Virus record (IMG/VR): IMGVR_UViG_2778261572_000007
DNA length: 5,214 bases
From: a virus
Taxonomy: Duplodnaviria > Heunggongvirae > Uroviricota > Caudoviricetes
Reading direction: 5' to 3' (one strand)
The notes beneath the pieces are model-generated. The model saw only the letters and a list, made by a program, of their open reading frames with translations, was not told the origin of the DNA and made no database searches. Below, piece by piece: positions 157-4,856 of the stretch (position 1 is its first letter; every line of letters begins with the position of its first letter). Position numbers and translations under genes: made by a program.

Positions 157-474
157 TTAACAGATTGACTGAATTCCGTTTTTCTCAACCACAGAAAGCA
201 AACGAAGGGCAGGGCCACCAGGGCGCTTTATTCCCCTTTCCCAGTCTGAAATGAGGTTTTTACTGACATTAAGATATCTGGCGAAAACAGGTTGAGACAG
301 ATGCTCGCGCTCGCGAAGTGCCCGGATTCTTTCTGGCGACATTGTTGGCGCTGGTTGCAGACAAAGTTCATCAAACTCTCTCATAGTTTGTTTTGTTACT
401 GCGCCAATATCCTGAAGTGACTCCATCATTTCATGTACGGATGCAAGCGCATCACTGCGGTAATTTTTACTCAT
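157..474 (-). CDS. XRE-family helix-turn-helix antitoxin / transcriptional regulator (105 aa)
   Basis: Complete minus-strand ORF. The C-terminal half (LSQPVFARYLNVSKNLISDWERGIKRPGGPALRLL) looks like an XRE-type HTH. Its start ATG (474-472) overlaps the stop of the upstream toxin-like ORF in an ATGAGTAA junction. A GGAGG Shine-Dalgarno lies 6 nt upstream, inside the toxin 3' end. Family assignment is from recalled motifs, not a search. Confidence 0.8.
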   Translation of the reverse strand: MSKNYRSDALASVHEMMESLQDIGAVTKQTMREFDELCLQPAPTMSPERIRALREREHLSQPVFARYLNVSKNLISDWERGIKRPGGPALRLLSVVEKNGIQSIC

Positions 475-838
475 TGGGTACCTCCGTAAACTGACCCTGC
501 AGGATCAATTGCGCCAGTTGTTCATCAGTAAGATTGAGAACGTGATGCGCAGCTTTTCGAAATGCATTTTCCTCGATGGCTGTAATATTTTCTCTCTCAT
601 TCTTTGCGTACGCATAGATGAAAAAAGCCTTTTCTGCGACGCGGTAAAAAATTATTGTCCTATAACCGCCTGATTTACCGCCACCTCTTCGGGCTAATCG
701 CTGCTTAATGACACCACTACCCAAATCTGCGGATATGAGTCCCTTATCAGCTAGTTCCACGACTTCTCGCAGAGCTTTATCGGAAATCCGATTTTTTCGT
801 GCGAAGCGTTCAAACCAGGCATTTTTGAAAATGCGCAT
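467..838 (-). CDS. RelE/ParE-superfamily-like toxin (123 aa; HigB-like toxin-first arrangement)
   Basis: Minus-strand ORF from ATG 838-836 to TAA 469-467. The segment GGGKSGGYRTIIFYRV...FFIYAYAKNERENI resembles the core of RelE/ParE-fold toxins that pair with HTH antitoxins. The longer 171-aa ORF in the track starts inside the AT-rich intergenic region and has an implausible Cys/Tyr-rich N-terminus, so the ATG at 838 (or 850) is preferred. The start is uncertain by a few codons. Confidence 0.7.
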   Translation of the reverse strand: MRIFKNAWFERFARKNRISDKALREVVELADKGLISADLGSGVIKQRLARRGGGKSGGYRTIIFYRVAEKAFFIYAYAKNERENITAIEENAFRKAAHHVLNLTDEQLAQLILQGQFTEVPNE

Positions 839-1079
839 GTTTGGTTCCATATCGTTGTGTAATACATAGTGTGACACAATTAAATAGGATGGGCAATATA
901 CATACAGGGGGCTTGCTAAGGGATGGCAGCTCAAAAAACACTCTATTTTTAGAGTATACAAATGACAGAAAGAAAAAGTCATTGTTTTTTCTCATGAAAT
1001 ACGCATTTTTTGGGAGTGAAATCGTTATTTGTAGTGGATATATTCCAGCCATGTTTTATCCAATACCAGAGGTTTTACA
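839..1079. promoter_or_regulatory. AT-rich divergent intergenic region with candidate operator inverted repeats; exact promoters not resolved
   Basis: 241 bp between the minus-strand toxin start (838) and the plus-strand ORF at 1080. Inverted repeat TTGTGT (855-860) - N13 - ACACAA (874-879) sits just upstream of the toxin start. A perfect 6-bp inverted repeat ACTCTA (940-945) - TTTT - TAGAGT (950-955) lies mid-region. No clean sigma70 -35/-10 pair could be assigned by eye. Confidence 0.3.
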
Positions 1080-1292
1080 ATGCAGAAGTTGATCGCCGCG
1101 AATTGTAAGTACGCAGTTATTCGTTGTGACGATATGTCGGTTGTAGCTGAAATGGATTGTTTTCCGGATGGGGCCAGGGCTGTATGGCATCGAAAAGGGG
1201 GCATACTTAGGGTAAGAGCTTTGCGGCCTGATGAGCGAATTGTATCGAAAACAGTGCTCAGGGAGATCGTGTATCAGTTTATGCGGACTTGA
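1080..1292 (+). CDS. Hypothetical protein (70 aa)
   Basis: ATG at 1080 preceded by AGAGG (1068-1072) with a 7-nt spacer. It is the first plus-strand ORF after the divergent intergenic region. No motif recognised. Confidence 0.5.
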   Translation: MQKLIAANCKYAVIRCDDMSVVAEMDCFPDGARAVWHRKGGILRVRALRPDERIVSKTVLREIVYQFMRT

Positions 1293-1356: not shown

Positions 1357-1650
1357 ATGCGCCAGCAGAGAAAACAGATGGCGCACAAGACCAAATTACA
1401 CAATTCTGATACCGTTCGTGCCAGCAGGCGCGGGCGGCGTTCTCACGCATTCAAATCTGACTGGTTCCAGCATGATTCATGCACTGAAGAACAGGCCGAA
1501 TGGCTGATTCAGAACTACCGCAGACGTGGTTACGAGTTTCAGAAAGACCTCAGCCTCGACTTCCGACACTGGATAATCTCCGTCAGGCTTCCTTACTCTG
1601 AACGCCCACCGCGTCCGTCTCGCACATTCCAGCAACGCATCTGGAGGTAA
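1357..1650 (+). CDS. Hypothetical basic protein (97 aa), translationally coupled to the downstream gene
   Basis: Arg/Lys-rich N-terminus (MRQQRKQMAHKTKL...RRGRRSH). Its TAA (1648-1650) sits 1 nt before the GTG start of the next ORF and immediately follows that gene's GGAGG. The start is uncertain: ATG 1357 has no clear SD, and ATG 1378 is an alternative. Confidence 0.5.
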   Translation: MRQQRKQMAHKTKLHNSDTVRASRRGRRSHAFKSDWFQHDSCTEEQAEWLIQNYRRRGYEFQKDLSLDFRHWIISVRLPYSERPPRPSRTFQQRIWR

Positions 1651-2713: not shown

Positions 2714-3070
2714 ATGCTCATAGATTTGGTTTTACCTTACCCGCCGACGGTGAACACTTACTGGCGACGCCGTGGCAGCACATATTTTATCTCGGATGAG
2801 GGAAAGCGTTATCGCCGGGCTGTGGCGCTTATTGTTCGCCAGCAGCGGCTGAAATTAAGCCTGTCCGGAAGGCTGGCGATAAAGGTGATTGCAGAGCCAC
2901 CGGATAAGCGTCGTCGCGACCTGGACAATATCCTGAAAGCACCGCTGGATGCGCTGACGCATGCGGGAGTGTTAATGGACGATGAGCAGTTTGATGAAAT
3001 CAATATCGTTCGTGGTCAGCCAGTATCTGGTGGACGTCTGGGGGTGAAGATTTACCCCATAATGCATTAA
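2714..3070 (+). CDS. rusA: Crossover junction endodeoxyribonuclease RusA (Holliday-junction resolvase), 118 aa
   Basis: Size and motifs match RusA: N-terminal LPYPPTVNTYWRRRG and the acidic catalytic region RRRDLDNILKAPLDALTHAGVLMDDEQ. SD AGAGGTG lies upstream of ATG 2714. The position immediately upstream of Q is typical of lambdoid phages that carry rusA instead of ninG/rap. Confidence 0.9.
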   Translation: MLIDLVLPYPPTVNTYWRRRGSTYFISDEGKRYRRAVALIVRQQRLKLSLSGRLAIKVIAEPPDKRRRDLDNILKAPLDALTHAGVLMDDEQFDEINIVRGQPVSGGRLGVKIYPIMH

Positions 3071-3084
3071 GAGCAGGTCAAAAA

Positions 3085-3906
3085 ATGAAACTGGAAGATT
3101 TACCGAAATACTACTCCCCAAAATCACCTTGCCTGACCGATGCATCGGCCTCAACGTCAAAAGATGCGCTGAGTATCACTGATGTGATGGCCGCGCAGGG
3201 CATGACACAGAATCGGGCTGAGATGGGGTTTTCTGCGTTCCTGGGGAAAATGGGCATCAGTATGAATGACAGGGCGCGGGCAACAGAATTACTGGCAGAT
3301 TATGCACTCAGTCGGTGCGATCGTGTGGCGGCGTTGAGAAAACTTCCGGCAGAAATAAAACCGTTAGTGATGCGCATTATGGCTTCGTACGCTTTTGAGG
3401 ATTATGCCCGCAGCGCAGCGAGTAAAAAGCAGTGCCCTTGTTGCTATGGGGAAAAATTTATTGAAAGCGTAGTTTTTACAAACAAGGTCCAGTATCCGGA
3501 TGGTAAGCCGCCGGTATGGGCAAAGTGTACGAAAGGTGTGTATCCGTCTTACTGGGAAGAATGGAAAAAAGTCAGGGAGGTGGTAAAAGTTGCCTGTCCG
3601 GAGTGTGGCGGAAAGGGTGAGGTTTCCACCGCCTGTAAGGATTGCCGTGGGCGTGGTGTCGCCATTCATCGTGAAGAGTCGGTAAAACGTGGTATGCCTG
3701 TTATCAGAGACTGCCGGCGTTGTGGCGGTCGTGGCTATGAAAGACTGCCATCAACGGAGGCATTTAATGCCATATGCAAAGTGACGAGCGCTATCACGCT
3801 TGATACATGGAAAAAATCAGTGAAACGCTTTTACGATACGTTGGTGGTTCGGTTTGACATTGAAGAGGCATGGGCGGAGCGGCAGTTAAAGAGAGTAACG
3901 CGATAG
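3085..3906 (+). CDS. Q: Late-gene antitermination protein Q-like (273 aa) with four CxxCxGxG zinc-finger-type repeats
   Basis: Called mainly on position: directly after rusA and directly before a P_R'-like promoter and tR'-like terminator. Contains CPCCYGEK, CPECGGKG, CKDCRGRG and CRRCGGRG repeats. Assignment to a specific Q family is not verified. Confidence 0.75.
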   Translation: MKLEDLPKYYSPKSPCLTDASASTSKDALSITDVMAAQGMTQNRAEMGFSAFLGKMGISMNDRARATELLADYALSRCDRVAALRKLPAEIKPLVMRIMASYAFEDYARSAASKKQCPCCYGEKFIESVVFTNKVQYPDGKPPVWAKCTKGVYPSYWEEWKKVREVVKVACPECGGKGEVSTACKDCRGRGVAIHREESVKRGMPVIRDCRRCGGRGYERLPSTEAFNAICKVTSAITLDTWKKSVKRFYDTLVVRFDIEEAWAERQLKRVTR

Positions 3907-4265: not shown

Positions 4266-4342
4266 CCGTCGCTAGCTCATCCGGATAGAGCATCAGCCTT
4301 CGAAGTTGATGGCGCGGGGTTCGAGTCCCCGGTGACGGTCCA
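4266..4342 (+). tRNA. tRNA-Arg, anticodon TCG (UCG), 77 nt with encoded CCA
   Basis: Manual cloverleaf: acceptor CCGTCGC / GTGACGG (7 bp, one G-U); D-arm GCTC-ATCCGGATA-GAGC; anticodon arm TCAGC-CTTCGAA-GTTGA (anticodon positions 34-36 = TCG); variable loop TGGCG; T-arm CGGGG-TTCGAGT-CCCCG; discriminator T then CCA. Confidence 0.75.
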
Positions 4343-4344
4343 TT

Positions 4345-4856
<512 letters not shown>

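Follow-up and report, generated by a model that had tools for sequence, protein, structure and literature searches.

A toxin-first gene pair of probable HigBA2 type, with an operator predicted across its family, in a degraded Qin-like prophage

Two short genes on the minus strand of a 5,214-nt stretch of viral DNA (IMG/VR record IMGVR_UViG_2778261572_000007; the whole stretch is called the window below) have the appearance of a toxin-antitoxin (TA) pair, which raises the questions of what family they belong to, where the toxin begins, and what such a pair might do for the element that carries it. An earlier note on this DNA had proposed a toxin-first module consisting of a 123-aa RelE/ParE-like toxin and a 105-aa XRE-HTH antitoxin. 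Both genes lie at the coordinates given there (Table 1), and profile-HMM searches with the two proteins bear out the assignment: the toxin matches PF06296, a TA family, over its full length, and the antitoxin contains an HTH_3 domain. The proposal can be refined to a HigB2-type toxin with a HigA2/YiaG-like antitoxin, and we consider it very likely that the pair is a type II TA operon of the HigBA2 kind (PF06296, relE-yiaG), carried as accessory cargo by a lambda-like prophage. The family, the retention of catalytic residues, the obligate pairing, the coupling signals, the conserved predicted operator and the terminator are all established computationally here. The module itself is already known, with a RefSeq-annotated toxin, a characterised family prototype and a relE-yiaG type described in 2025, and beyond its correct annotation the pair matters little. 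What we add is modest: an architecture of operator and promoter that is predicted across the family.

Table 1. Features of the toxin-antitoxin pair and of the surrounding prophage genes; positions refer to the window.
Feature	Position	Strand	Description
Bidirectional intrinsic terminator	107-135	both	stem 107-117/125-135; 21 nt past antitoxin stop
Antitoxin gene	157-474	minus	105 aa; XRE-type HTH protein
8-nt gene overlap	467-474	minus	ATGAGTAA, antitoxin start over toxin stop; plus strand reads ttactcat
Toxin gene	467-838	minus	123 aa; PF06296 / HigB2-type RelE superfamily, predicted mRNase
Shine-Dalgarno sequence for antitoxin	481-485	minus	GGAGG, within toxin 3' end; plus-strand cctcc; 6 nt before ATG
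Inverted repeat	855-865 and 869-879		two arms, upstream of toxin; coincides with predicted operator
Predicted operator	858-876	minus	19-bp imperfect palindrome TGTCACAC-TAT-GTATTACA; cross-locus motif
Predicted autoregulated promoter	868-896	minus	-35 TTGCCC (896-891), 17-nt spacer, -10 CACACT (873-868)
Alternative sigma-70-like match	953-982	minus	ATGACT-18-TATACT; generic scan, 9/12; ~115 nt upstream of toxin ATG
DUF968 gene	1652-2701	plus	
RusA	2714-3070	plus	
Antiterminator Q	3085-3906	plus	
tRNA-Arg	after Q	plus	
Tail protein J fragment	4548-4856	plus	last ~100 residues; then Lom-like start

The match between the toxin and PF06296 covers residues 1-120 of the protein and positions 1-120 of the 120-position profile (E 4.2e-47; 159.7 bits, with a curated Pfam cutoff of 27 bits). 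The best phmmer matches in the PDB are chains of V. cholerae HigB-2 (VcHigB2; E 2e-4), and the predicted fold leads to the same protein. An AF2 model of the toxin, built from 30 homologs and of moderate confidence (pLDDT 71.6), returned VcHigB2 chains as its top six Foldseek matches in the PDB (probability 0.98-1.0, TM 0.43-0.54), the first four of them at a probability of 1.00; other HigB, RelE and ParE toxins followed at much lower probability. Identity to VcHigB2 is only ~20-28% overall. In the PDB phmmer alignment, K49, R51, R64, Y82 and K84 of VcHigB2 stand over K45, R47, R60, Y77 and K79 of the toxin, and the toxin keeps the basic, Gly-rich beta2-beta3 loop (ARRGGGKSGGY). Four of these VcHigB2 residues, R51, R64, Y82 and K84, are important by mutagenesis (PMC5416850), and work on the Coxiella toxin has added K49 to the HigB2 active-site set (PMC10098735). 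K45, R60 and K79 do not vary across the 30 homologs, and R47 reaches a conservation of 90% or more. Position 77, the equivalent of Tyr82, is Phe in most of these homologs and Y75 is invariant; thus, Y75 may be the functional, catalytic tyrosine in this subfamily.

Does this toxin cleave mRNA, or could it instead be a gyrase poison of the ParE type? RefSeq contains a protein 100% identical to the toxin (WP_001217946.1) under the generic name 'type II toxin-antitoxin system RelE/ParE family toxin', and ParE and ParDE structures do appear far down the fold-search list, both of which a ParE reading could claim for itself. Yet those ParE structures reach a probability of at most 0.2, as opposed to 1.0 for HigB2, the toxin has no match to PF05016, and the RelE-type catalytic Arg/Arg/Tyr/Lys set is retained. 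The family that it does match, PF06296, has ribosome-dependent mRNases as its characterised members; its prototype, HigB-2, is encoded in toxin-then-antitoxin order and cleaves mRNA in a ribosome-dependent manner (PMC11980606). Gyrase poisoning is hardly credible on this evidence, and from its family and active site the toxin is predicted to be a RelE-type mRNase and not a ParE-type poison. NCBIfam offers no toxin-specific model, its sole match to the toxin being a spurious SDR hit (E 0.0095), and the PHROGs match is phrog_5869, a family of unknown function.

The partner protein has its HTH_3 domain at residues 50-94 (Pfam, E 8e-8). Its best PDB match is Antitoxin HigA-2 (E 9e-8, residues 44-99), and with K-12 YiaG it shares 31% identity over residues 13-99. 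NCBIfam returned only sub-threshold matches for it (MqsA, DicA, YiaG and NadS), and PHROGs matched phrog_2104, again of unknown function. An identical protein exists in RefSeq, where it is named only as an HTH protein; it can now be labelled a HigA2/YiaG-type antitoxin. In the AF2 model (pLDDT 81.6), helices span residues 8-22, 28-39, 47-56, 61-68, 72-80 and 87-99. The N-terminal 43 residues, which are predicted to be helical, are conserved as strongly as the HTH domain, as would be expected if these residues neutralise the toxin. On the DNA-binding side, the base-contacting residues R68, E71, N72 and R77 of VcHigA2 correspond to N73, S76, D77 and I82 in the PDB alignment. Since all four are replaced, DNA recognition by this antitoxin is predicted not to be identical to that of VcHigA2.

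If the open reading frame of the toxin is drawn mechanically, it extends to 982 and would encode 171 aa. Three observations place the start at the ATG at 838 instead. First, the PF06296 profile aligns with the 123-aa form from its very first residue. Second, the RefSeq annotation of the toxin in a 99.9%-identical E. coli locus is exactly 467-838, again 123 aa. Third, the corresponding position is a start codon (ATG, GTG or TTG) in 70 of the 77 homologous loci compared. An in-frame upstream start that would add at least 20 residues is present in only seven of the 77; we therefore reject the 171-aa ORF as the real toxin, and annotations that carry the long call should be cut back to 123 aa. By cross-locus comparison, the N-terminal extension (839-982) is predicted to be non-coding, and it holds the conserved predicted operator and promoter. 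The Shine-Dalgarno sequence of the toxin gene itself is weak.

The earlier note had pointed to an inverted repeat within 839-900, and the repeat found there proves to contain a palindrome that is conserved family-wide. An alignment, across loci, of the 200 nt that precede the toxin gene showed the palindrome T[AG]T[AC]A[CT]AC-TNN-GTGT[GT]ATA in 71 of 76 non-redundant loci. It ends 11-35 nt (median 22) ahead of the toxin start codon, and only 1 of 1520 shuffles scored as high. Four E. coli variants have upstream regions that cannot otherwise be aligned, and the palindrome is their sole conserved block. The instance in the window, TGTGTCACACTATGTATTACACA (856-878, the PWM window), scores 26.2 bits and lies 17 nt from the toxin ATG. 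The consensus T[AG]T[AC]A[CT]AC-N3-GTGT[GT]ATA, together with the promoter geometry described next, is a ready target for EMSA or reporter experiments.

Counted from the motif start, a TTGACA-like hexamer occupies positions -18 to -13 in 15 of the 71 loci; no other position has one in more than three. This fixed position of a -35-like hexamer would put the -10 element at motif positions 6-11. In the window the same geometry gives the promoter at 868-896, the predicted -10 element of which is overlapped by the predicted operator, with a transcription start predicted near 861. Its hexamers are weak (3/6 each), and a generic promoter scan did not call it; we infer this promoter solely from the positional conservation across loci. 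Going upstream from the toxin ATG on the minus strand, the first promoter-like site in the generic scan is the one at 953-982, which is kept in E2865 and not in the O104:H4 or PhiR12_3 variants.

The junction of the two genes is as the earlier note had described it, with the antitoxin ATG lying over the toxin stop in ATGAGTAA and a GGAGG for the antitoxin inside the 3' end of the toxin gene. In the homologous loci, the antitoxin match begins within a few nucleotides of the end of the toxin match, or overlaps it. The operon also has its own terminator, another feature noticed earlier: the stem is a perfect one of 11 bp (100% complementary), rich in CCCCGGA, with runs of A and T to either side, and it is called on both strands. 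Rfam returned no RNA-family match within the module, which thus gives no hint of an RNA antitoxin of type I or type III.

These features can be assembled into a mechanism. A single transcript would probably run from the weak promoter, with its -10 element inside the 858-876 palindrome, to the terminator at 107-135. The 123-aa RelE-fold ribonuclease would, by homology, enter the ribosomal A site and cut mRNA under translation. Translation of the antitoxin would be coupled to that of the toxin through the ATGAGTAA overlap and would also use the antitoxin's own GGAGG. Binding the toxin, and so neutralising it, would fall to the N-terminal helices of the antitoxin (residues ~8-39), and its C-terminal HTH would form a dimer on the palindrome, repressing the operon. 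Should antitoxin synthesis stop, through loss of the element or under stress, proteolysis of the antitoxin would leave free toxin, and translation would be arrested. In this scheme the RNase activity, the neutralisation, the repression and the lability of the antitoxin are presumed by analogy with characterised relatives.

How closely are the two genes tied to each other, and where do they occur? A homolog scan with one genome per species gave at least 579 loci with relatives, and the best 80 were kept. In these best 80 of at least 579, the toxin homologs are 52-68% identical to the toxin and come from Proteobacteria, Cyanobacteria, Acidobacteriota and Verrucomicrobiota. An antitoxin homolog lies directly downstream in 78 of the 80 (47-82% identity, mostly full length), and the other two loci end at the end of a contig. 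An index of public assemblies has a protein identical to the toxin in 776 blocks. The eight of its contexts that were read all show it paired with the antitoxin, and each time the pair lies between replication-region genes (YdaS/YdaT, DnaC-like, DUF1627 and others) and DUF968-RusA-Q. By DNA similarity, the module is present in 235 of 5426 complete E. coli genomes, always on the chromosome; none of the complete genomes covers 80% or more of the window. Most toxin homologs lie on the chromosomes or plasmids of unrelated bacteria, with 274 plasmid records and only 2 phage records, and a tblastn search with the toxin matched 19 Coxiella plasmid records. Searches of phage DNA and phage proteins found only one phage with the module, PhiR12_3, whose toxin gene is frameshifted.

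The window is a degraded Qin-like (lambda-like) prophage, in which Q is joined to a fragment of tail protein J. The earlier note had compared the position of the pair with that of relBE-hokD in Qin and had suggested a swappable slot. The K-12 annotation does have relB-relE-hokD-rem directly upstream of ydfU (DUF968) and ydfT (Q), and the same position holds hokD-rem in N2250, hokD with a hypothetical gene in Z1323CEC0011, and hokD with this module in E2865; qualitatively, the slot is indeed swappable. Recurrent toxin cargo in one lambdoid slot makes this a place to test prophage stabilisation against host defence. In the O104:H4 C227-11 prophage, the interval from the replication genes to NinB-NinE-RusA-Q contains hokD, a Doc-family toxin and a decayed copy of the module, in which the toxin is split by two frameshifts and the antitoxin is intact; this is a related case in a different nin region.

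Toxin genes broken by one or two frameshifts beside an intact antitoxin are found in some E. coli copies (O104:H4, PhiR12_3), and thus toxin activity appears to be dispensable in some hosts. The pair in the window could itself be functionally decayed, with a toxin that is inactive or poorly expressed and an HTH protein that survives mainly as a transcription factor or an anti-addiction antitoxin, as the orphan YiaG of K-12 may do. The degraded state of the host prophage itself, with its Q-J junction, would suit this explanation, as would the weakness of the toxin Shine-Dalgarno sequence and of the promoter, and K-12 keeps a solitary YiaG (the 31% identical relative of the antitoxin). However, both ORFs are intact in the window and all catalytic residues are present, the coupling signals and the predicted operator are intact as well, and the identical toxin occurs in as many as 776 assembly blocks, with the antitoxin at its side in 8 of the 8 contexts read. 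We regard functional decay of this copy as very unlikely, and continue with the pair as a TA operon of the HigBA2 kind.

What would such an operon do for its carrier? Its most likely role is selfish addiction that stabilises the prophage segment. Addiction is the best-supported role because relatives stabilise replicons or support a plasmid host, and because homologs are common on plasmids and rare in phages. The module could also be an anti-phage abortive-infection system, in which infection by another phage would shut off host transcription or degrade the antitoxin, freeing the mRNase to abort the infection. This is compatible with HigBA2 biochemistry and differs from addiction in biological role only; moreover, the module is prophage-borne and its slot repeatedly holds toxin genes (hokD, relBE, Doc), and for other toxins of the RelE superfamily a part in defence has been proposed or demonstrated (HigB-type toxin-antitoxin-chaperone systems are one example; see also the review PMC11980606). 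On the other hand, no model in PADLOC-DB v2 matches the toxin, and the antitoxin has generic HTH matches only (E 3e-5 or weaker). The ratio of 274 plasmid to 2 phage records among the homologs fits addiction as well or better, and the decay of the toxin with retention of the antitoxin in O104:H4 and PhiR12_3 argues against strong selection for defence. Our search of the literature on PF06296 modules found no test of phage defence, and no experiment on the E. coli pair itself came up in searches by accession or for HigB2 together with prophage. Defence by this module is possible as a speculation, and we think it unlikely.

A more elaborate version of the idea, which we rate as quite unlikely, treats the whole interval between the replication genes and DUF968-RusA-Q of Rac/Qin-like prophages as a toxin hotspot (hok, relBE, Doc, HigBA2-type) and the module within it as a conditional device, either for abortive infection or as a checkpoint on induction. 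The module is antisense to the early-right operon and ends in a bidirectional terminator, and silencing of the antitoxin by read-through would therefore be possible: N-antiterminated transcription, during induction or superinfection, could silence the antitoxin by transcriptional interference and release the mRNase. Addiction remains the role that we favour.

The pair can be placed among known systems at several distances. K-12 relBE, which sits with hokD in Qin, has the same prophage slot, the same toxin superfamily and the same general mechanism (a ribosome-dependent mRNase, here by homology), but its toxin belongs to PF05016, its order is antitoxin-first, and it is co-directional with the phage genes, whereas the pair in the window is antisense to them. 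The K-12 RelB antitoxin is of the RHH type. HigB/HigA of Proteus vulgaris Rts1 and HigBA of K-12 (YgjN/YgjM) resemble the pair in being toxin-first with an HTH antitoxin; their toxins, however, fall in PF05015 and PF09907, not PF06296, and because the Pfam family differs we reject membership of the toxin in the Rts1 HigB or K-12 YgjN families. The HigB toxins of PF05015 and PF09907 are without a C-terminal helix, and their antitoxin is fully folded and leaves the active site uncovered (PMC5416850).

With V. cholerae HigB2/HigA2 (VCA0468/0469; PDB 5JAA, 8A0X), the pair has both PF06296 and the toxin-first order in common, and the two toxins share RelE-like active-site residues and a Gly/Lys-rich beta2-beta3 loop. 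The V. cholerae toxin is a ribosome-dependent mRNase (PMC11980606, PMC5416850), and the system stabilises replicons (PMC11980606). The antitoxins are alike in length (~104 aa) and in layout, with an N-terminal neutralising segment, which in our case is only predicted, and a C-terminal HTH. They differ at the N-terminus, where two helices are predicted here and where VcHigA2 has a disordered segment that folds to a helix and a strand. In V. cholerae, HigA2 has as its operator one inverted repeat of 19 bp, TGTACGC-N5-GCGTACA, located after the -35 element and over the -10 element (PMC11006873). The operator predicted here is of the same kind, one 19-bp inverted repeat lying over the predicted -10 element and sharing the outer bases (TGT.../...ACA), but it consists of 8-bp arms and a 3-nt spacer in place of TGTACGC-N5-GCGTACA. 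The differing half-sites and base-contact residues fit separate specificities for the two antitoxins. The genomic settings differ too, a prophage here and the superintegron for V. cholerae HigBA2.

ToxP/AntitoxP of the Coxiella burnetii plasmid QpH1 (CBUA0028/0027) is another HigBA2-like, toxin-first pair, for which toxicity, rescue and translation inhibition have been shown (PMC10098735). AntitoxP and the ToxP/AntitoxP complex bind the promoter, and the pair is required for normal growth of the plasmid-bearing host (PMC10098735). It differs from the pair in the window in being plasmid-borne, in its identity of less than 60%, and in its role in plasmid maintenance in an intracellular pathogen.

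Finally, 'bicistronic relE-yiaG modules' of PF_RelE have been described bioinformatically, with E. coli VREC0535 as an example (Gerdes, mBio 2025; PMC11980606). There, as here, the toxin is a PF_RelE protein encoded ahead of a YiaG-like HTH antitoxin that has two N-terminal helices (predicted ones in our case), and, as judged from the published description, our pair is very probably of the same module type. The same study reports extended, heterogeneous and disordered N-termini for PF_RelE toxins (PMC11980606), whereas the corresponding stretch in the window, 839-982, is predicted to be non-coding and to contain the operator and promoter. This comparison suggests that the reported 'extended, disordered N-termini' may be over-called starts that run across the operator.

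The toxin gene of the HigBA2-type (relE-yiaG, PF_RelE) module can be lengthened by an in-frame extension of 48 codons (839-982, minus strand), giving an ORF of 171 aa that is also called in a public gene set (P0001). Both the conserved predicted operator and the predicted promoter lie within this extension. PF_RelE toxins paired with YiaG have been reported to possess N-termini that are "extended, heterogeneous, disordered" (PMC11980606), and these may reflect the same over-calling of the start codon as in the window.

Copies of the module with a broken toxin gene were found in E. coli O104:H4 C227-11 (7302-7668 of locus L004; two frameshifts) and in phage PhiR12_3 (5302-5669 of locus L088; one frameshift). 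In both copies the antitoxin is intact, at 92-94% identity, and the O104:H4 copy adjoins hokD and a Doc-family toxin. In E. coli K-12, yiaG (3479-3769 of locus L086) encodes a solitary HTH protein with cspA and hokA as neighbours. The window antitoxin shares 31% identity with K-12 YiaG across 87 residues, including the N-terminal helices, and YiaG looks like an orphan antitoxin of the relE-yiaG module type. Separately, one prophage that carries the module (L094) also encodes, at 687-1382, a further TA-like pair made up of a Pfam ParE_toxin match and an HTH protein, located downstream of its Q and methyltransferase genes.

Two small plus-strand ORFs separate the module from the DUF968 gene (see table). 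One of this pair, encoding 70 aa, accompanies the TA module in several prophages, and similarity to prophages lacking the module starts at approximately position 1358 of the window. At the right-hand end, Q is followed by tRNA-Arg, a C-terminal remnant of J and a Lom-like ORF. The lysis genes, the head genes and most tail genes have been deleted, and thus the prophage is defective and Qin-like. A second tRNA, immediately 3' of tRNA-Arg at 4345-4417, matches the Rfam tRNA model with 48 bits; ARAGORN made no call for it in the window. Related prophages have a tRNA-Thr at the equivalent position. Because homology to these prophages stops near 4410, the second tRNA copy may have been damaged at the deletion junction.

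Features of the window flanking the TA module
Feature	Position	Strand	Match or remark
Small conserved phage ORF, unknown function	1080-1292	+	phrog_1813
Small conserved phage ORF, unknown function	1357-1650	+	phrog_1212
Antiterminator Q	3085-3906		
tRNA-Arg	4266-4342		3' of Q
Tail-tip protein J, final ~100 residues only	4548-4856		Pfam Ig_GpJ_C
Lom-like ORF	from 4923		runs past window end

Since TA transcription runs antisense to the plus-strand string of phage genes, and the terminator at 107-135 is predicted on both strands, this terminator could double as a nin-type terminator of rightward phage transcription. Antitermination read-through past it would then run antisense to the TA transcript. 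The relBE genes of K-12, which occupy the same slot, are co-directional with the phage genes, whereas the module in the window is antisense to them.
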